NCBI GenBank assembly: GCA_964354495.1
Contig: CAYHAA010000019.1
Location: forward strand, 29,335 to 61,334
Origin: an uncultured archaeon
Lineage (GTDB): Archaea; Asgardarchaeota; Thorarchaeia; Thorarchaeales; Thorarchaeaceae
DNA: 32,000 bases
Reading direction: 5' to 3'
Shown: positions 424 through 9,844 of the stretch, piece after piece
How positions within the stretch are numbered: position 1 is the stretch's first letter
How the letters are laid out: each line of letters starts with the position of its first letter
The notes under the pieces: generated by a model
The model's database searches: none
What the model saw: the letters and a program-made list of their open reading frames with translations, nothing else
What the model was told of the DNA's origin: nothing
Program-made: the position numbers and the translations under genes

Positions 424-2562
424 GTGAAGGATTTGAAAGGGCCCCTAGAAACAAAGCACGAAGGAATCAAGAGCATACTTCGCCAAGCAGAAGAGGATTT
501 GAAGGAGGTTCTGAGAGGCAAGAAGGTGCCTGAGGGAGAGGGGTTTTTCGGTGAGTCTCGGGAGTTCATGGTGTTCGAGCTCGCCAAATCCAAGAATCAG
601 GATACTGCAACGCTTCATATTGCTAATGCAGCCAACGAGGCCTTGCTTGAGATATTCAGGGATGTCAAAGAAGAAGCAAGTGCATCTGACTGTATTGAGT
701 CAATGACTCTCTGCGCATACGGTCTCATCCTGGGAAATTACAATGAAGAGGATTTCCGTTTCTTGTACAGGCAATCACTGCGGTATGTGAGAAATCAGAA
801 CACCATAGAAGAGTGGCTGCGCAACGCAATGGTCCTCCTTGCAGCAATCAACAACGATGACGCCCATAGTCTTCTGACAGAAATACGCCACTGGATTCAG
901 TTCCTTGGAGCACCTCTTTTCGGTACAACTTCCTTCATAGATGCCGGTAAGAAACTGGGGATAGATTTACAGCCCATCGTCGAATCCGAGGAGTATCGTC
1001 TGGTGAATGCTGTCGCACGTCATCCACAGTATCTCAGTGAGGCTGTAATGAATAGGTCGTTCTTTGACGCATTTGAATCGATGAAAGAGTGGGCGCCTGA
1101 TGCTGTCCTGCTCAATCTTCTCAAGATAAAGAAAGAGGAGGTCTACGGACATGGGCAGAATGAGATTAGACCAGACATGGCTGTTGAAGAAGCAGTCAAG
1201 ACTATATCGAGAATATTTGTGAAAGAGCAATTCAGGACAAACAAGCAGACAGTCCTACCAGTGAGACTTCAGGAGCTTGCTCGACCTCCGCCTGGCGAAG
1301 TTGTAGATCCAATCATCTTTGAGATGATACCGCAAAAGCTCCGAATGGATCTTCTTCCATCAGTTGCCTATTCTACCAAAATCAAGCACATTGAAATCAT
1401 ATTCCTCGGAGGGCACAGGATTGGTAGAAGCGGCATTCTCATAAAGACAGACACAGGCGGCATTCTGCTAGACTATGGTCTCTCAGTAGCGAATCACAGA
1501 ATTCCTGAATGGATTCCGGAGATGGACATGATAGATACCGTTCTTATCAGCCACTCACATCTGGATCATGTTGGAGGGCTACCAGTTCTCTATGAGGAGT
1601 TCACAGGGAAGTGGTGCTCTGTTGGTCCAACAGGAGCAGTCACAACGATTCTGCTTGACGATGCCCTGAAGGTTGGGACTCCATTCCCTCCTCGCAAGTA
1701 TGATGAGCTAGATCTCATCTCACGCTACAATGAAGAGAATATACAGAAGGTCGCAAAGAACCACGTGAAACTGGAATACGGGCAGAGCAGTGAGGTCGGT
1801 CCGGGCATAGTTGTCACCCCCATCGATGCATGTCATATACCCGGAAGCGCAGTCTATGCAATAGACATTGAAGGCGTCAAGATTCTATACACTGGTGACT
1901 TCAATCTTGACAAATCAGTACTATTCCCTGGAGCAAACATACCTACTGATGCACAGTACGTTATCTATGATGGCACCTACTGGGGGAGAGAGGATTTTGA
2001 TAGAGCCAAGGTGGCAGAACAAATCAGCAGGACAGTTGCGACTCACGGACCAGTGATAATACCGAGCTTCGCCGTGGGACGCTCGCAGGAAATTCTGCTA
2101 ATCTTGGAGGAACTTGGCATAACAAAGAACCGAAATGTCATGGTCACTGGGATGGCCGAGCGAGTGACAAAGGTTGTGGGTGTTACAGGCAGCTGGCAGA
2201 GCATGAAGAAGAACAGGACGCATCTTGAAGAGGAGGATGTACTTGTTGCGGGAGGAGGCATGATGAGTGGCGGGCTTGCAAGGCAGCACTTCAACGAACA
2301 GAGAAACAATCCAAAGGCAGCAGTGATTCTCTGCGGGTATCTAGCTCCGAGAACTTCAGGATGGAATCTTCTTCACGGCTATGAACCTCATGAGTGTGCT
2401 TTCGAATACGCTCGGTTAAGCGCTCATTCTTCATCGTCCAACCTTGAGAGATACGTCAACTCATGCAAAGGAAAGCGGATAATGGTGCATACACCAGTCT
2501 TCAGCCAGCCAAAGGGCATCATGATACCAAGCTACAAAGAGAGAATAACCATATCAATCTAG
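424..2562 (+). CDS. Metallo-beta-lactamase/beta-CASP ribonuclease (aCPSF-like) with ~320-aa uncharacterised N-terminal extension
   Basis: MBL motifs LLDYG, SHSHLDH (HxHxDH), CHIPGSA, YTGDF and DGTY. beta-CASP motifs PSFAVGRSQE, GGGMMSGG, CGY, SAH and VH. The catalytic domain starts at about aa 320 (IEIIFLGG). GTG start. Confidence 0.85.
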   Translation: MKDLKGPLETKHEGIKSILRQAEEDLKEVLRGKKVPEGEGFFGESREFMVFELAKSKNQDTATLHIANAANEALLEIFRDVKEEASASDCIESMTLCAYGLILGNYNEEDFRFLYRQSLRYVRNQNTIEEWLRNAMVLLAAINNDDAHSLLTEIRHWIQFLGAPLFGTTSFIDAGKKLGIDLQPIVESEEYRLVNAVARHPQYLSEAVMNRSFFDAFESMKEWAPDAVLLNLLKIKKEEVYGHGQNEIRPDMAVEEAVKTISRIFVKEQFRTNKQTVLPVRLQELARPPPGEVVDPIIFEMIPQKLRMDLLPSVAYSTKIKHIEIIFLGGHRIGRSGILIKTDTGGILLDYGLSVANHRIPEWIPEMDMIDTVLISHSHLDHVGGLPVLYEEFTGKWCSVGPTGAVTTILLDDALKVGTPFPPRKYDELDLISRYNEENIQKVAKNHVKLEYGQSSEVGPGIVVTPIDACHIPGSAVYAIDIEGVKILYTGDFNLDKSVLFPGANIPTDAQYVIYDGTYWGREDFDRAKVAEQISRTVATHGPVIIPSFAVGRSQEILLILEELGITKNRNVMVTGMAERVTKVVGVTGSWQSMKKNRTHLEEEDVLVAGGGMMSGGLARQHFNEQRNNPKAAVILCGYLAPRTSGWNLLHGYEPHECAFEYARLSAHSSSSNLERYVNSCKGKRIMVHTPVFSQPKGIMIPSYKERITISI

Positions 2563-4508
2563 GCCACGATTTCAAGAACGCCATCGAGAACAAGCTTCGT
2601 TGCCACGAATTTCATGGCCTGCATGCTCACGTTAATCTTGCGGACTACATCCTCCATTGATGTTTGACCATCACAGAAGTCGACAAACTTGATCACAGCC
2701 TGCCCGTAGGCCTTCTCGGTTTCCTCGCTGACAACTCCAACTTTCTTCAGAACGCTTGTTGGTCCAATTTCAACCTTGAAATCGACCCATCCATAGCGAT
2801 TCAGTATCTGCAGACAGCCAAGGACTATCTCACGGGGTAGGTTGAGACTCCGCACTAGACCACCAATAGTATCATTCTGCGCTATGGCGGACTGAACCTC
2901 CACAATCGCTGTACCTACCTCTCGATTGCTGAATGGTAGAGGTCTTCCAGCTTCTCTAGCTCTCAACAAGTAGTCAAGACTGATCGGTCTGAGCGGAACC
3001 TTCGCCAGAATGTCAAAGATCGAGGGCTCGAATACCGAACTACTGCCGTTCCATGCTGCCCAGACATTCTGATACTTCTGCTCGAGATCCACTAGTATTG
3101 AGTTCAGGACTCCTCTCTGTTCCTCCTCCTGGCTGTCATTTGTCACAATAAGCGCCATGACGAAGTGCGTGGATTTCTCAACCATCACGAGATTACCTTC
3201 GTGCTCAATCGTCTCAAGTGCATTAGTACCACTAGTGCCATCACTTGATTGTGCGTCAATTCCTCCAAATGAGTCGAGTGCAGATATGAGAGAAGCAATT
3301 GCGTTTTCATCAATGACTTCATCGACATAGCTCACATGAGTGACTACATCAGGAACACCGTCAGTTGGAACAATGGCTAAGAGGTGTAATATCTTCGAGT
3401 GGTCAGAAGCAGGTCGAACGGGGGTCTTCTGACTGGTGACTGTATCAGTGGTCGTTTTGTGACTTACAGTCTCTGCTTTCATGGCTGATGAATGTCCGGC
3501 TGCCACAGCATCAACCGAGGAGGTCGCTTCATCGTAGGGCACATCTTGAAACCCGGTTTCGCCTTCTTTGGCTTTCTTCGCTGCAGCTCCGGGTCGGTCC
3601 ATCTCCTCAGTTCCTCTCCTAACAGTAATCATCTCACTGATAGGCAGGTCGGGTAGTGTCACACCAACGGTCTTAGCAGCAACCTCAAGCATCATACGAA
3701 TGAATTCTTCGCGACGAGACTTGTCTGTAGCAATCATAGGGAATGTGGGAGCACCCAGAAGACGCTTGATTTTTTCAGCCTTCATGGACTCGGGAAGATC
3801 CTGCTTGTTTGCCAGAATGAAGAGAGGCACTGCAGGGGCTTCCTTCCTGATAGTACGAAGAAGGGACTTGGTCTGCATGACATTCCTGAAACTTGAGTCG
3901 GTGACCAGAAAGATAACATCGGTTCCAGAGAAGTAAAAGCTCCATAAATCTTGAAAGACTGCCTGTCCTGCGAAGTCCCAGACGGTCACAAGAAAAGTAC
4001 CGAATTGGATGGTTTCTGAGGAGTCCACAGCAACATTGATGGTTGGTACGTACCCTCCCGGCGCTGGCTCCTTGCCGAAGAGGAGTCGCAGGAGAGTGCT
4101 TTTACCAACACCACCGCTTCCAACGAAGCTGACCTTGAATCGTGTGAATATCAGTTCGCCGAGAATGTCATCGAGATTATCACGGATGTAACCTATGCTG
4201 TTTCCACGAAGGGCTGTGGAAACTCGGGACGCCCCTTCTCTGACTCTGTACTGGATGGCACGGTCTTCATCGCGTCCGTCGGTTACAAAGAGGAGGAGCA
4301 TCTCTCCGTCAACCTCGGCATGGAAGACCTTATGCTTCTCAGCCACGAAGACAGGAGTGTCTTGAGCGAGACCTTGTGTCCCAAAGAGGTCTCGATAGCC
4401 AGCCAGGAAGTCAGTGATATCTCTATCCACAAAGTCGATTTTCCAAAACCTAGTTCTCACTACAACGTTGCCATCTTCTTTTCCTATGAGCAAGACGTTG
4501 TGTATCAT
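2559..4508 (-). CDS. Multidomain small GTPase: N-terminal longin-like domain, Arf-like G domain, low-complexity linker, second longin domain, two winged helices
   Basis: G1 GSGGVGKS (aa130-137), G2 VPT156, G3 WDFAGQ (aa177-182), G4 NKQD (aa234-237). Flanking regions show the longin beta-beta-alpha-beta-beta-beta-alpha-alpha pattern. C-terminal wHTH motifs LNLPREIVLGCLQILNRYGWV and CDGQTSMEDVVRKINVSMQAMKFVATKLVLDGVL. Confidence 0.85.
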   Translation of the reverse strand: MIHNVLLIGKEDGNVVVRTRFWKIDFVDRDITDFLAGYRDLFGTQGLAQDTPVFVAEKHKVFHAEVDGEMLLLFVTDGRDEDRAIQYRVREGASRVSTALRGNSIGYIRDNLDDILGELIFTRFKVSFVGSGGVGKSTLLRLLFGKEPAPGGYVPTINVAVDSSETIQFGTFLVTVWDFAGQAVFQDLWSFYFSGTDVIFLVTDSSFRNVMQTKSLLRTIRKEAPAVPLFILANKQDLPESMKAEKIKRLLGAPTFPMIATDKSRREEFIRMMLEVAAKTVGVTLPDLPISEMITVRRGTEEMDRPGAAAKKAKEGETGFQDVPYDEATSSVDAVAAGHSSAMKAETVSHKTTTDTVTSQKTPVRPASDHSKILHLLAIVPTDGVPDVVTHVSYVDEVIDENAIASLISALDSFGGIDAQSSDGTSGTNALETIEHEGNLVMVEKSTHFVMALIVTNDSQEEEQRGVLNSILVDLEQKYQNVWAAWNGSSSVFEPSIFDILAKVPLRPISLDYLLRAREAGRPLPFSNREVGTAIVEVQSAIAQNDTIGGLVRSLNLPREIVLGCLQILNRYGWVDFKVEIGPTSVLKKVGVVSEETEKAYGQAVIKFVDFCDGQTSMEDVVRKINVSMQAMKFVATKLVLDGVLEIVA

Positions 4509-4591
4509 CAGCTTTCCACGTTCCTTGTCTAGGATTGTCTTGGTTTTAGATGTTATCTGTATTGCTCGACCGTTTCAAGCTTGCTATGACA

Positions 4592-6334
4592 TCATTTTGC
4601 AGTCAATGAAACTACTCCACGTTTGTGCAACTCAGCAAAGACTTTCTGAAGGACGCTAGGCTGCAGTCCCAAGGTGCGTGCAATATCTTGAATACTGAGG
4701 GATCCATCAACCAGCGCAAGGATGGTACTAAGACCCTCATAGAGGGACATCACATCTTTACCAGGAACCACTACTAGTGAGGGAATGTCTTCAGGCTGTA
4801 CTCTCAGCTGGCAATCTATGGCGCCCAATCGATTGAGAAGGTGAATTGCGCCGAGAATTAACTCCGGACCTCTTCCCGGCGCCAACTTGGATATTGTAAG
4901 CGTGCCATTCAGTCGATACCAAACAGCTTCAAGGAATTCACGCACTGGCGCGTGCTCAAATCGCTCCCAAACTAGAGGCCTTTTTTGAATTGGTGCCACT
5001 CTTCCAGCTAGCACAGCAGGAGGGAGAGTAGCCAGCAACTTGATTGTGAAGAGAGGAGACCTGAAGAGGTCAGTAGGATCCTCAGATGGCTTAGGAATTT
5101 CATCGAGAAATAGGTCTGGAAGGAATGAGAAACGGGATCTCAGAGCCTCTACGTTTGCCTCACTTCTAGTGATCAACGTGAACACATAGTCGCTTCGTTC
5201 AATTGTGATGTAGCTCAAATCACCTGTTCTGAACACAGAGGTTTCAGCTGGGCCTGTTTGATCTATTTTGAAGGAGGATATGGCAGCGACAATATTCGGA
5301 GCCACCTCCAGCAGACCAGATCTCTCGTCGTAGTAGTAGCTGTACACTGCCTCCCCTGTTCTGCGATCTACAACGAAGAATGCCTTGTGCCCCGCGTCAA
5401 CGTTGGGTACCTCTTGAGGGGCACCGGGCTCACGAATCAGAGGCCCTATTTCCCATTTCTGCAGTGCCAGTTCTGGTTGCATATCGCAGAAACCGCCATA
5501 GGCCATAGCTGAGAGGAGTAGATTGATGGGCCTAGGAGAGACCGTATCACAGAGATCAACACCATGTTGAATCTCAAACTCTCGTGCAACCTCAAGGTCG
5601 TCGTCCGAGCCAGGAATCACTATTATCCGCGCACTTGATTCTTTGCGAATCTTGATAATAACATCCCGAATCATTTCGTTCTTTGCCATACCTTTTGAAA
5701 TGACCAATGCAAATAGCCCAACGGATTTCAGGGCATCGGGCCATGCAGCCTTGACGAGTCCAGCGCAAATCGCCCGCGTCGCCCTGACCGCATACGGACC
5801 GATTTTCATCACCTCTGAAAACTGTTCACCCGTATGCTGCTTAATCTCAAGAAGGCTTTCTACAGCAATCACTGACTTGTTATCGTCAGATTGCTCAGCA
5901 GCAGTCACAAAACAGATGTCGAGGTGAGTTCGAAGATGGGCATCTGCTACAACAGAGAACTCATTCTTAAAGTCGCGAACTGATTTGTCAACAATCTTTG
6001 ATGAAACAGCCGCCTGAAATTCCCGAAGCCGTGCTATCTCTTCATCTGTGAACGTTTCAGACTCGCTCACAGCGATGACTAGAGTCACATCACCTACTCT
6101 GCTGATACTTGTAGGACGACTATGTACATCCGTCACTATGAAACTTCGAGCTGCATCTTCCTGAATTAGTGCATAGTACTCGTTCACTACAGTAGCGATG
6201 AAGTCCTCGGTTATGCCATCTTTGATGAACGACAGCGATGCCAGTGCTTTTGAACCGAGCAGATCGTATAGTATGACTCTCGCAATCAAGCTCATCGGGT
6301 CTCCCGTTTCACCCAGTATCAACGTTCTTGCCAA
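4592..6334 (-). CDS. Paralog of 2559-4508: longin, degenerate (pseudo) G domain, longin, two winged helices
   Basis: Segments align in order with the neighbour: ELILGAIHLLNRLGAID vs EIVLGCLQILNRYGWVD; VDGSLSIQDIAR vs CDGQTSMEDVVR; IIKIRKES vs LRTIRKEA; MKIGPYAV vs IQFGTFLV. No P-loop, DxxG or NKxD. Start is TTG 6334 or ATG 6295. Confidence 0.75.
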   Translation of the reverse strand: MARTLILGETGDPMSLIARVILYDLLGSKALASLSFIKDGITEDFIATVVNEYYALIQEDAARSFIVTDVHSRPTSISRVGDVTLVIAVSESETFTDEEIARLREFQAAVSSKIVDKSVRDFKNEFSVVADAHLRTHLDICFVTAAEQSDDNKSVIAVESLLEIKQHTGEQFSEVMKIGPYAVRATRAICAGLVKAAWPDALKSVGLFALVISKGMAKNEMIRDVIIKIRKESSARIIVIPGSDDDLEVAREFEIQHGVDLCDTVSPRPINLLLSAMAYGGFCDMQPELALQKWEIGPLIREPGAPQEVPNVDAGHKAFFVVDRRTGEAVYSYYYDERSGLLEVAPNIVAAISSFKIDQTGPAETSVFRTGDLSYITIERSDYVFTLITRSEANVEALRSRFSFLPDLFLDEIPKPSEDPTDLFRSPLFTIKLLATLPPAVLAGRVAPIQKRPLVWERFEHAPVREFLEAVWYRLNGTLTISKLAPGRGPELILGAIHLLNRLGAIDCQLRVQPEDIPSLVVVPGKDVMSLYEGLSTILALVDGSLSIQDIARTLGLQPSVLQKVFAELHKRGVVSLTAK

Positions 6335-6353: not shown

Positions 6354-7589
6354 TCAACCTTGTTCAGCTCTCTTCGCGATGAGATTGTCAATCGAAATAA
6401 GACCTCTCATGTATCTTTGATAATCTGAGTCTATCTTAGAGCGGTCATATTCGATGGAATCCACGCCGCCACCAGAAGGAATCTCAGGTAGATCCTGTAT
6501 CGCTTCAGACACTGTAATCGGTGGTGGAAGAGATTTGCTCTCTGACAGGGCATCACCTGTCGCATTAAGGCGCGGAACTGTCGAGAACAGAGCATCGGGC
6601 TCCTCGAACAAGTCCCCATTTCGGGTTGCGATAATGAATACACGCCTCCTTCGCTGCGGCACTCCGTACTCCTCTGCTTTCAAGACCAATGTCCTGTGAT
6701 GATAGCCCTCTCTCGTTAATGTATCAAGCATGGTCTTCAACAATCGACCTTGATGTATCCATCGAATTCCTGGAACATTCTCGATAAGGACATTCTCGGG
6801 CCGCAGTTTGTGGATGAAGACCAAGGTCCTGAAGATCAAGGAGTTGCGAACATCCGAAGGTAATCGTTTGCCAGCAGTTGAGAATCCTTGGCACGGCGGG
6901 CCACCAGCCAGCAGATTCAGTGTGCGTCCCTTGAGCTTTGATTCAGTAGTATCAATGAGGTTGTCCGTGTCTGCCTCACTGAGGATATTGGCTTGGACAA
7001 CTGTGGCATTCTCATGATTCAATCGATATGTTTCGCACATGTGGCGGTTGAGGTCGGTTGCCACGAGAACTCGATGACCTGCCTGCCTCAGTCCCTCGGA
7101 GAGACCTCCTGCCCCGCAAAACAAGTCAACATAGGAACCGTGCTTGATTCCATCCCCAAGTACCTTGCCAAGAAGGGGAGGAACAGCGTTTCCAATCTGT
7201 TTGAATCGAGAGCTGAAACTACCGAGAAACCGATATCTGTCAGGAAAGGACTGCAATCGTGCTGCCTCTCGCATAGAGATTAGGCGGTCTTGAGTTGGGT
7301 GTATGAAGGTGCCGTTTCCCGGTCGATTGAAATAGGTGTTGATCGTGTAGCTCGGAAGGTCACCTCTCAGACGACCATAGTACGTCGTACGACCTCCAGA
7401 AATGGAGATTTGAGTGAGCCTTGCAGACTTTGCAATCGTTGCTTCGGGCAGATTGCTCCAATTGCCGCCTGATGGAACAGACCGGACGATCTCCATGTCA
7501 AGTTCGCTTAGCGTGGCACATGTGTGATTGTATAACATGTTGTTGATATCTTGTTCAGGCGCCTCTGCATTAGCTGAAACGAAATTCAC
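6354..7589 (-). CDS. DNA (cytosine-5)-methyltransferase, circularly permuted (TRD-IX-X-I...VIII)
   Basis: Motif IX REAARLQSFPD and X KQIGNAVPP come before motif I DLFCGAGG, IV GGPPCQGFS, VI ENVPG and VIII PQRRRRVFII. An SD-like GAGGGTGA (7600-7607, minus strand) lies 10 nt before the GTG at 7589. Confidence 0.93.
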   Translation of the reverse strand: MNFVSANAEAPEQDINNMLYNHTCATLSELDMEIVRSVPSGGNWSNLPEATIAKSARLTQISISGGRTTYYGRLRGDLPSYTINTYFNRPGNGTFIHPTQDRLISMREAARLQSFPDRYRFLGSFSSRFKQIGNAVPPLLGKVLGDGIKHGSYVDLFCGAGGLSEGLRQAGHRVLVATDLNRHMCETYRLNHENATVVQANILSEADTDNLIDTTESKLKGRTLNLLAGGPPCQGFSTAGKRLPSDVRNSLIFRTLVFIHKLRPENVLIENVPGIRWIHQGRLLKTMLDTLTREGYHHRTLVLKAEEYGVPQRRRRVFIIATRNGDLFEEPDALFSTVPRLNATGDALSESKSLPPPITVSEAIQDLPEIPSGGGVDSIEYDRSKIDSDYQRYMRGLISIDNLIAKRAEQG

Positions 7590-7606
7590 GAGGAAAAAGT
7601 CACCCT

Positions 7607-9844
7607 CTATCCTGAAAGACTTTCTCCTTCCATCTTCGACAACTCGTCAAGGATTTTGTCACGCTGATTCTCAGGGGTCTTGCGCAGGAAAAGAATTCCA
7701 TGAGCCTCTTTCATGCCTAGTCCATAGAGCGCAAAGGTTGATGCATCCAGCAAGGCCGAAAAATCATGCATTCCATCCTTGAGCTTCCGAACCTCCCTGA
7801 CCACTGTTTCCTCCAATTTGGCCTGCCCGCCTGCAGGCTGCGCTATGGGTAGACTCTGAAGTTCTCGAATAGATACATGATTGTTAGAGCTCGCGATCTG
7901 AAATCTCCAGTTAAGAAGCTCTGAGTTCAGGATTCCTAAGAGAAAATCCAAGTATCTGGATGAATCAGGATGCATGACCACCAAGTAGTTGCACGAGTTG
8001 GAGAGAATCGTGAGAGGTTCGACCAGAGCGAATTTGAGCCTCCATCTCTGTCCCATGTTTGAGATCTGTTGACAGATGATTCGCTTCATCGCGATATGTT
8101 CTGACCGCTCCGATGCATTGAGAGTCTTTCGAAATGACTCTAAGTCAACAAACTCTGAAGCGCGTCTGGTCTCTGTGAGATGAAAACGTCTGATATGAGA
8201 TCCTCTGATCAGCCTTGCATCTGATTCGTCTGAGGAAATGTGCGTCTTGTCCAAAGTGAGGTCTAATTCTCCTCGCCTTGCAAGAATCCAGCCCAGTGAT
8301 GAGAGAGGAGGCTGTCTATGCATTGTTTCCAAGTGTGTGAGACCCAAGGCGTCAACGCGGGGTATGACAAGAGACTGACCCATAGTCTGGAGAATTCGAC
8401 GAAGATTGATTTTGTGCCGCCCACGGCTGGAAGCATCATTCACGCCGGTTCGATTCAGACCAATCTCAAAGATATCCGTGCGACCTCCTTTCGTCAGAGT
8501 GATTATGGATACCGACTGTGTCACGCCAGTGAAAAGCCTCGATGCTTCAGGGAAATCATCAATGATGTTCACGACATTTCGAAGAAGAAGTTCCTGCCTG
8601 AGAGGTGCCGTTGAAATATCAGACAAGATATTTGATGGCACGATGAATCCGATATTGCCATTTGTCTTCGTGACCTGCAATGCTCGTTCGATGAAGAGCT
8701 GGTATGTATTGAGGGAATAGCTTGTCGCGAAACTGTATTCCTTGGAGTTACGGAAAAACCGTGTACTCTCGCGGATATCAGCTCTGTATTCCTCAAACTT
8801 ACTTGCATGAATCTCCCTCTCGCCACTTAGCAACTGCTCTCTCATGAACTCTGCTAGGTTTGGCTTTAGACGTTCATAGGGCGGATTCATGACCACGAAA
8901 TCAAAGCCCCCTTCCTCCCCGCAAAACACTTCCTTGAATGCGTTTCGCCATTCGAATGGAGTCTTTCCGTCCGGGTTGCGGAAGAAGTGTCGATGATTGG
9001 ATATCCCTGATATCCCATTAAGTGAAACCAGAGAATTCCCTCTTTTCAGAGTCGAACCAATGTGACTACTTCGAAATCTCAGTGGTTCTGGGCTTTCCAA
9101 GAGGCGCAGCGATACATCGGCGACCTCCAATGCCCCTGCATCTAGGTCCACCCCGTAGATTCGTGGAGAGCCATCCGTAAGGGACTCATCAATTTCATCC
9201 TTTGGAATGCCCATGCTCTCAAGGGCTTGAGTGGCTTCATGTAATGCCTGCTGTAATGCTCGCAGTGCTGAGACAAGGAATGCGCCAGAGCCACAGGCAG
9301 GATCTACTGTAAGCAATGAGGCAAGTGCCGCGAATGCAGAGATGCCGCTTTTTCTGACATGACGAATATGCTCTCGCAGCTTCGGTCCCAGTGTGAGTCG
9401 CACTATATGATCTGCAAGAGACTGAGGTGTATAGAAAGCACCAAGAGGTCTCTGAGACGAAGCCTGTTGTAGAGTGAGAGGCAATTGATATGAACCTAGG
9501 ACGTGAATTCTTCCTAGGAGTTCAATGAAGTCATTTATGGGGATTCTCTTGACGCTGTCATATTGCTCAAGTCTCAGTCCCTCAATTATTGAACGAGCTA
9601 GCTCTCCCACTTCTCTCCTAGCTACTCCACGTTTCTCACTCTCGTAGGAGAGCTCGGAGAATAGTAGCTGATCCTCATCGAGACCCAGATAGGCATTGCC
9701 AAAGCGATAGGTGGCAATCCAATTCAGCGCTGCAAGACGTACTGAATCAATCTGAAGCCTTGACTTGTGTGAGGAATCTAGAGCGGCATGATCGCGAACA
9801 TCACAGAGCATTGACCATGCCAGACTTCTGATTCTATCTTCCAA
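7607..9844 (-). CDS. N6-adenine DNA methyltransferase, probably Alw26I/Eco31I/Esp3I family
   Basis: GAFYTP, motif I VDPACGSGAFL, GVDLD, motif IV NPPYERLKP, YQLFIERAL and a C-terminal TRD-like region. Adjacency to a permuted m5C MTase is the hallmark of this Type IIS family. TTG start. Confidence 0.85.
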   Translation of the reverse strand: MEDRIRSLAWSMLCDVRDHAALDSSHKSRLQIDSVRLAALNWIATYRFGNAYLGLDEDQLLFSELSYESEKRGVARREVGELARSIIEGLRLEQYDSVKRIPINDFIELLGRIHVLGSYQLPLTLQQASSQRPLGAFYTPQSLADHIVRLTLGPKLREHIRHVRKSGISAFAALASLLTVDPACGSGAFLVSALRALQQALHEATQALESMGIPKDEIDESLTDGSPRIYGVDLDAGALEVADVSLRLLESPEPLRFRSSHIGSTLKRGNSLVSLNGISGISNHRHFFRNPDGKTPFEWRNAFKEVFCGEEGGFDFVVMNPPYERLKPNLAEFMREQLLSGEREIHASKFEEYRADIRESTRFFRNSKEYSFATSYSLNTYQLFIERALQVTKTNGNIGFIVPSNILSDISTAPLRQELLLRNVVNIIDDFPEASRLFTGVTQSVSIITLTKGGRTDIFEIGLNRTGVNDASSRGRHKINLRRILQTMGQSLVIPRVDALGLTHLETMHRQPPLSSLGWILARRGELDLTLDKTHISSDESDARLIRGSHIRRFHLTETRRASEFVDLESFRKTLNASERSEHIAMKRIICQQISNMGQRWRLKFALVEPLTILSNSCNYLVVMHPDSSRYLDFLLGILNSELLNWRFQIASSNNHVSIRELQSLPIAQPAGGQAKLEETVVREVRKLKDGMHDFSALLDASTFALYGLGMKEAHGILFLRKTPENQRDKILDELSKMEGESLSG

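Follow-up and report, generated by a model that had tools for sequence, protein, structure and literature searches.

A tandem GTPase and pseudo-GTPase paralog pair with longin and winged-helix domains in one Thorarchaeota family

Introduction

In the Rag/Gtr GTPases (RagA/B-RagC/D and Gtr1-Gtr2), a G domain is followed by a longin/roadblock-type dimerization domain, and in NPRL2-NPRL3 (Npr2-Npr3) of GATOR1/SEACIT, a longin domain is followed by a C-terminal winged helix. In both systems the subunits are paralogs, and this longin or roadblock-type domain is the heterodimer interface. Roadblock or longin domains, winged helices, and Ras-like GTPases also cooperate in MglA-MglB and in the actinobacterial conservons, which include CvnB (roadblock), CvnC (DUF742 winged helix-turn-helix [wHTH]), and CvnD (GTPase). 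Here we analyze two adjacent genes, called A and B, in a 32,000-nucleotide (nt) stretch of a Thorarchaeota genome (G000, contig 19; hereafter "the window," in whose positions coordinates are given). The reading that we favor, at a probability of about one-half, is that a five-module gene was duplicated and that its two copies now form an asymmetric A-B heterodimeric switch with one live G domain. One chain would join two folds that are used separately in eukaryotic nutrient signaling, those of Rag and of NPRL2/3.

In Asgard archaea, it is rarely clear which GTPases and which longin/roadblock partners belong together (PMC10933270). Longin-GTPase fusions and an NPRL2-like family found "in most Thor MAGs" (metagenome-assembled genomes) have been reported (Liu et al., bioRxiv 10.1101/2020.10.19.343400), as have Lokiarchaeon longin-GTPase-roadblock architectures, including an operon pair predicted to heterodimerize like Gtr1-Gtr2 (Tran et al., PMC10933270). 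Literature searches on pseudoGTPases and archaea returned general reviews only, and those on NPRL2 and Asgard returned no description of a GTPase/pseudo-GTPase pair. The initial annotation of the window took the arrangement to be undescribed. That statement stands for the pseudo-GTPase partner and for the fusion to an NPRL2-like tail, neither of which was found in searchable papers, and falls for longin-GTPase fusions and NPRL2-like proteins, which are published. We conclude that the pair is a lineage-restricted variant of Rag-like and NPRL-like Asgard proteins, the components of which are already known.

The A and B genes

The two adjacent, co-oriented genes had been noted as lying 83 nt apart, and they were recovered as minus-strand open reading frames (ORFs) at 2559-4508 and 4592-6334, with the spacer at 4509-4591. 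The B frame is open from a TTG codon at 6334 and would encode 580 aa from there. The true start is most likely the ATG at 6295, giving 567 aa, because B orthologues begin at the corresponding position (Met14) and a GGGAGA Shine-Dalgarno-like motif directly precedes that codon; B residues are therefore numbered from M14. No strong TATA-like box was seen in the 83-nt spacer on inspection by eye. The features of the pair are as follows.

2559..4508, minus strand: gene A, 649 aa, active Arf-like GTPase (ORF; Pfam Arf) with the order longin, G domain, linker, longin, winged helix (WH), WH
4149..4508, minus strand: A N-terminal longin, residues 1-120, beta-beta-alpha-beta-beta-beta-alpha-alpha (AF2 secondary structure; VIA-align)
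3636..4148, minus strand: A G domain, residues 121-291, G1-G5 plus the catalytic Gln of DxxGQ
3402..3635, minus strand: A linker, residues 292-369, variable, low-complexity, and predicted to be disordered (predicted local distance difference test score [pLDDT] <50)
3009..3401, minus strand: A second longin (L2), residues 370-500 (VIA-align)
2562..3008, minus strand: A connector and two winged-helix domains, residues 501-649 (hhalign against B; weak Pfam HTH_47)
4509..4591, minus strand: B-A spacer, 83 nt (sequence read)
4592..6295, minus strand: gene B, 567 aa from the ATG at 6295, predicted pseudo-GTPase paralog of A
5933..6295, minus strand: B N-terminal longin, residues 1-121, fast evolving (VIA-align)
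5441..5932, minus strand: B pseudo-G domain, residues 122-285, predicted small-GTPase fold without P-loop, DxxG, or NKxD
5096..5395, minus strand: B second longin, residues 301-400, the best conserved part of B (VIA-align)
4595..5095, minus strand: B connector helix (FTLKLLATLPP, conserved) and two winged-helix domains, residues 401-567

Domain folds

To B, a confident structural model was assigned (mean pLDDT, 84.6) from an alignment of 43 sequences that included representatives from a 1.84-billion-protein library. Superposition by VIA-align indicated that B 1-123 is a longin (sedlin 2j3w_C, Z 12.1, root mean square deviation [rmsd] 2.7 over 116 residues; zeta-COP, Z 11.5) and that B 300-430 is another (VAMP7 4afi_A, Z 12.2; AP sigma, Z ~12; Sec22b, Z 11.5). 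Between them, B 121-272 adopts a small-GTPase fold, matching Sec4 (Z 11.0, 142 residues), Rab2A (Z 10.9), Rheb (Z 10.8), and Cdc42 (within Z 10.7-10.9), with an rmsd of 3.3-3.7 over 137-143 residues for the first three. The same order was found in A: residues 1-123 match the longins of delta-COP (5mu7_B, Z 12.5, rmsd 2.3, 108 residues) and of the AP mu N-terminal domains (Z 12.0-12.2), residues 120-284 match the GTPases Rab23 (Z 12.8), Arf6 (Z 12.4), and the Lokiarchaeota RagA-like protein 8yl2 (Z 12.2), and residues 367-510 match a Lokiarchaeota longin dimer (8yqg_B, Z 11.9), VAMP7 (Z 11.7), and Sec22 (Z 11.6). All four longin domains have the longin fold without the N-terminal helix of roadblock domains, and the order of their secondary-structure elements agrees.

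In predicted secondary structure, both tails have helices and hairpins in the order expected of two winged helices, accompanied by weak Pfam matches to HTH_47, Rrf2, and MarR_2 (E 2e-3 to 5e-3); the domain-level fold search of B hardly sampled this region. At the level of sequence, the longin domains had no Pfam or PDB matches, and PDB sequence-profile searches with the A N-terminal domain and with the longin+WH+WH module gave chance-level matches only. A feature-based search of the ESM Atlas returned for B its own cluster and two Thorarchaeota clusters only and for A 1-118 nothing usable. Of the architecture that had been proposed, the double longin is upheld by Z 11.9-12.5 for the four domains, and the double winged helix is probable from the secondary structure of the tails and from hhalign. 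We conclude that both proteins are predicted to consist of a longin, a small-GTPase fold, a second longin, and two winged helices.

Nucleotide-binding motifs

As the initial annotation had claimed, only the 649-aa copy keeps the G motifs. A carries all five, namely, GSGGVGKST (G1), PTINV (G2), WDFAGQ (G3), NKQD (G4), and ATDKS (G5). Pfam Arf matches A over residues 122-254 (7.5e-19; 68.3 bits, cutoff 22.3), Roc and Ras also match, and Gtr1_RagA reaches 25.4 bits (cutoff 22) compared with the 68.3 bits of Arf. The best PDB sequence match to the A G domain is Arf1 (E 2e-15), and all the best ones are Arf or Arl. By its motifs, Pfam matches, and fold (Z 12.8), A is a Ras-superfamily GTPase of the Arf-like type, whereas B is not: it has none of the P-loop, DxxG, and NKxD, reads TAAEQSDDNKS and VIPGSDDD where A has the P-loop and NKQD, and has no Pfam G-domain match and no Pfam domain at all except weak wHTH matches at the C terminus. 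We conclude that B is a putative pseudo-GTPase, in which the modeled G fold persists and the nucleotide-binding motifs have been lost. With one live and one dead G domain, the pair would lend itself to clean biochemical tests of whether A and B bind, in what ratio, and whether GTPase activity depends on the partner.

Paralogy of A and B

Direct comparison of A and B by BLASTP aligned the winged-helix tail only (24% identity over 90 residues, E 8e-8). Family profiles built from 21 orthologues each, when compared by hhalign, aligned over 533 collinear columns, pairing A 1-646 with B 22-581, with a probability of 97.5% and an E of 6e-12. The domain-wise fold and profile searches by which the initial annotation could be checked thus found longin and G folds in both proteins as well as homology between their profiles. 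When the modules were cut and compared all against all, the cognate module ranked first in five of six rows, with E values of 7.5e-4 for the N-terminal longins, 2.7e-3 for the G domains, 1e-10 for the two winged helices together, 1.5e-6 for WH1, and 8e-6 for WH2. In the sixth row, that of the second longin by itself, the score lacked significance (0.07) and fell slightly behind that of a noncognate segment (0.037). Sequence by itself therefore proves the common tail and only suggests the rest. The observation that had been reported is confirmed, the domains being settled by the fold searches. We conclude that it is supported that A and B are full-length paralogs, collinear from end to end.

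Distribution, linkage, and rates of evolution

To determine the distribution of the pair, the B profile was run over 201 genomes sampled across the phylum, 43 of which belong to the family of the window (family f1). Full-length B was present in 40 of the 43 and was found in none of the other Asgard families sampled. Across the whole library, B had only 45 matching representatives at E <=0.001, each a B orthologue, a fragment, or a short longin+WH+WH protein. The 40 genomes with B also have full-length A, which adjoins B on one contig in most of them and lies next to it wherever contigs permit checking. Moreover, many of the metagenome matches of A and B are on contigs of identical size, both genes are present on about 100 contigs, and in Thorarchaeota SMTZ-45 the two genes bear consecutive locus tags. 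Synteny across Asgard genomes had been named as a check, and co-conservation of the pair holds within one Thorarchaeota family. Among the dozens of small GTPases and longin/roadblock proteins of Asgard archaea, these two stand out as a candidate pair by their gene order, paralogy, and strict co-conservation. Their reach is limited, as they are confined to a single family of Thorarchaeota, a lineage other than the closest one to eukaryotes. One genus has a 525-aa gene, on the opposite strand (L003 9707-11284, minus strand), inserted between B and A (~1.9 kb), and therefore the pair need not be a single transcript everywhere.

Full-length A is also present in the single genome of the sister family (P0249), in which B was not found, and it sits there beside the same beta-CASP, NAD-kinase-wHTH, and nadA genes. 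The presence of A without B is consistent with a homodimeric ancestor. The gene upstream of the sister-family A was considered as a B orthologue and rejected, as it encodes an unrelated secreted protein of 500 aa (L006 2838-4340, plus strand) with a signal peptide, a Gly/Ser-rich linker, and, as judged by eye, a caspase-like C-terminal part.

The two proteins evolve at different rates. Across six genera compared with the window in the same genomes, A is 59-67% identical and B is 30-41% identical; A orthologues in Thorarchaeota are 67-96% identical. The A G domain has a mean identity of 94% to 20 orthologues and the A linker one of 35%. Mean identity in B is 33% for the N-terminal longin, 37% for the pseudo-G domain, and 64% for the second longin, and of its 19 invariant columns, 18 fall within residues 306-487. 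R399 and the FTLKLLATLPP helix are among the conserved parts of B. Full-length B frames were found in 35 of the 40 genomes, the other five being cut at contig ends, and two full-length matches (G128 and G179) contain one in-frame stop each.

Comparison with Rag/Gtr, NPRL2/NPRL3, and other systems

The B model was compared by Foldseek with models of reviewed UniProt entries and, separately, with the PDB. B 121-406 covers residues 4-309 of the 313 residues of RagA (E 3.2e-7) and also aligns to Gtr1, Gtr2, RagB, and RagD, nearly all of RagA, Gtr1, and Gtr2 being included. B 302-564 covers residues 4-325 of the 380 residues of human NPRL2 (E 3.4e-7) and aligns as well to fly NPRL2 26-358 and to fission yeast NPRL2 9-347 (E 3e-7 to 2e-6; TM by hit 0.21-0.24, a resemblance at the fold level only). 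B 1-400 covers full-length Fuzzy, and Mon1. The top PDB matches were Gtr1/Rag, NPRL2/3, Fuzzy, and Mon1-Ccz1. As the RagA and NPRL2 matches overlap, the second longin would be a Rag-type C-terminal domain and an NPRL2-type longin at once. The models indicate that these resemblances concern layout and are not proof of descent.

With the Rag/Gtr proteins, including Asgard Rag-like proteins (LokiRagO, PDB 8yl2), the pair would share paralogous subunits and, by the B 121-406 fold match, a G domain followed by a roadblock-type C-terminal dimerization domain. In contrast, both Rag subunits bind guanine nucleotide, in opposite states, and no nucleotide-binding motif is left in B; by sequence, the A G domain is of the Arf type; A and B have an extra N-terminal longin and two winged helices; and A has a disordered linker of ~75 residues between the G domain and the second longin. 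With NPRL2-NPRL3, a paralogous heterodimer, the pair has in common a longin followed by a C-terminal winged-helix domain, as indicated at the fold level only by B 302-564. Unlike NPRL2-NPRL3, the module in A and B is fused behind a longin-GTPase unit, and the domain-level longin matches of B are not NPRL2 specific.

Other systems are alike in part. The tri-longin guanine nucleotide exchange factors (GEFs) Mon1-Ccz1, Fuzzy-Inturned, and HPS1-HPS4 are multi-longin paralogous heterodimers that hold a small GTPase, but their middle domain is a longin rather than a G fold, and they have neither a winged-helix tail nor a built-in GTPase. MglA-MglB and the conservons differ in being separate small proteins with a sensor kinase, in their roadblock topology, and in having no pseudo-GTPase; one member of the A/B family has a weak DUF742 match (E 0.069). 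Finally, eukaryotic pseudo-GTPases such as CENP-M, AAGAB, and the pseudo-G domains of p190RhoGAP resemble B in having a G fold without nucleotide-binding motifs, which they use as a scaffold, but none of them is archaeal and none is known to stand in tandem with a live paralog.

A heterodimer model and its alternatives

In the explanation that we favor, A and B would have arisen by whole-gene tandem duplication of a five-module protein in the ancestor of the window's family. The ancestral protein would have begun with a longin and an Arf-like G domain, followed by a second longin serving as a Rag-type C-terminal dimerization domain and by two winged helices; the latter, taken with the second longin, would have resembled NPRL2. 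A would have kept a working GTPase under very strong constraint. B has lost its nucleotide-binding motifs, its N-terminal half now evolves fast, and constraint persists on its second longin and on the connector that leads into the first of its winged helices. We infer the interface and the output of the switch as follows: an asymmetric A-B heterodimer would be held by the second longins, and probably by the tails too, as in RagA-RagC, Gtr1-Gtr2, and NPRL2-NPRL3, and the nucleotide state of the sole live G domain would determine the shape in which the longin platform and winged-helix tails are offered to an effector, or whether they are accessible to it. Heterodimerization, which the initial annotation proposed as obligate and through reciprocal longin contacts, is plausible, though unproven, on the basis of adjacency, paralogy, and analogy with Rag/Gtr and NPRL2/NPRL3; we favor it because the equivalent domain pairs the subunits of those systems and because the best-kept part of B is that domain with its connector. 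Also in favor, the stand-alone longin+WH+WH module is likewise a tandem paralog pair in this genome (see below).

Several results weigh against this model or fail to help it. The A G domain is Arf-like by sequence, not Rag-like, and confidence in the A structural model is modest (pLDDT 60.6). At the domain level, the longin matches are unspecific, in that AP, COPI, SNARE, and TRAPP longins score as well as any, and TM-scores to eukaryotic matches are low (0.14-0.31 overall, 0.18-0.31 for Rag and NPRL2) because domain orientations differ. Even with E values up to 10 allowed, Pfam NPR2 (PF06218) matched nothing in the genome, and Pfam HTH_NPRL3 (PF24064) matched neither A nor B. Longins that act as GTPase-activating proteins (GAPs) are marked by a GP motif ahead of beta2 and, in the catalytic longin, by an arginine finger (PMC12290439), and by eye no GP motif was seen in the beta1-beta2 loops, which read RRTGEA in the B second longin, DGVPD in the A second longin, GKEDGN in the A N-terminal longin, and LLGSK in the B N-terminal longin. 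Complex prediction with A 370-649 and B 297-567 gave a score of 0.10 against a mark of 0.32, which is evidence neither way. Finally, the three family genomes without B are also without full-length A, but their co-absence says nothing because the neighboring beta-CASP gene (E 1e-50) is missing there too; the region is probably unassembled or was lost as a block, and co-absence was dropped as an argument.

A further-reaching version of the heterodimer model, which we consider unlikely and offer tentatively, is that A-B is a self-contained archaeal counterpart of the Rag-GATOR1 axis, in which a Rag-type and an NPRL2-type unit share one longin per chain and the whole was duplicated into a live and a dead copy. 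If so, GTPase, dimerization, and regulator or effector surface would all lie in one heterodimer, a minimal two-protein system would be available for dissecting Rag-like and NPRL-like proteins, and the question would be raised of whether eukaryotic modules arose by fission of such fusions.

One alternative is that B is a transient regulator or effector of A, similar to a GAP, a GEF, or a GDP dissociation inhibitor (GDI), and acts through its longin platform as do MglB, TRAPP, Mon1-Ccz1, and GATOR1, or that the cell's other small GTPases are the targets of both. In favor, regulation in trans is what longin/roadblock platforms usually provide (PMC10933270, PMC12290439), B matches Fuzzy and Mon1 over residues 1-400, and the genome encodes further longin-GTPases, e.g., P0247. 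Nevertheless, neither a GP motif nor an obvious arginine finger was seen by eye in the expected loops, the low identity of the B N-terminal longin and pseudo-G domain (33-37%) fits a catalytic surface there poorly, and a full-length paralog whose G domain is dead has the pattern seen in paired subunits. We consider regulation in trans possible but rather unlikely.

A second alternative takes the tails at face value, as TrmB/ArsR-like winged helices, and makes A and B GTP-controlled DNA-binding proteins in an epigenetic or defense-related four-gene unit with two methyltransferases (MTases) that lie upstream.

6354..7589, minus strand: permuted C5 DNA methyltransferase
7607..9844, minus strand: Eco57I-type N6 methyltransferase

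The order MTase, MTase, B, A, on one strand and with short gaps (~58 nt from the C5 MTase stop to the B start), is found in five of the six family-f1 genera examined. Moreover, a stand-alone longin+WH+WH relative, P0248, passes Pfam TrmB (26.9 bits, cutoff 25.6), and neighbors in the AFDB clusters carry the name ArsR-family regulators. However, B-A stands without the MTases in genome G027, and in the sister family A stands without either B or MTases. In addition, A is far too conserved for a typical defense gene, the flanks are housekeeping genes in stable synteny, and the tail has a further match in the C-terminal domain of NPRL2, which binds proteins. A defense-system reading of A and B was rejected, as neither had a meaningful PADLOC match and the locus is one of stable core synteny; we consider DNA binding of this kind quite unlikely. 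A third alternative, that B is a decaying duplicate without function, would account for the loss of all G motifs and for the faster evolution of B relative to A, but it is contradicted by the full-length frames in 35 of 40 genomes, the conserved second longin, the invariant columns, and the confident model, and it is very improbable.

Upstream methyltransferases

The C5 MTase is apparently circularly permuted: the QSFPD...QIGNAVPP block, which is usually C-terminal, lies at residues ~110-140, ahead of motif I (DLFCGAGG), motif IV (GPPCQGFS), ENV, and QRRRR, and Pfam DNA_methylase matches in two stretches. A single PADLOC Type II MTase model of 1036 residues is matched by the N6 MTase over 218-615 and by the C5 MTase over 646-1014 (genes at 6354-9844), and judging from these alignments, the two resemble a fused enzyme that has been split. 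No nuclease gene was found near the MTase pair. As the two genes are kept in place in five of the six genera, they look like a domesticated orphan pair.

Relatives of the modules and neighboring genes

The modules of A and B also occur in other combinations. P0247 (G000:C1:148431-150356; L005 6432-8357, plus strand) is another longin plus Arf-like GTPase protein of the genome, 641 aa long, with intact G motifs and a highly acidic tail of ~340 residues that is probably disordered; almost every genome of the family has a copy. Another Asgard family has longin-GTPases of 296 aa, and longin-GTPases in the AFDB clusters superpose on B 3-279 with an rmsd of 5.0.

The longin+WH+WH module also stands alone, in a form of 264 aa in the AFDB clusters (TM 0.58 by hit) and in one copy, P0248, in the sister family. 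In the genome of the window, it occurs as tandem stand-alone proteins of 275 and 300 aa (G000:C5:116620-118280; L021 6603-8332, minus strand) that match the A C-terminal half at E 2e-38 and 8e-44, and one of the two has an HTH_NPRL3 match below the cutoff (20.1 versus 27.2 bits). The neighbors of the tandem pair are DUF2797, radical SAM, and Roadblock/LC7 genes; in the sister family, this block recurs with a single copy (L007).

Downstream of A, a beta-CASP/metallo-beta-lactamase RNase-like protein is encoded at 424-2562 on the plus strand, with an N-terminal region of ~320 residues that has no Pfam match. This gene is convergent with A, and the layout is kept at all related loci examined, the sister family included.

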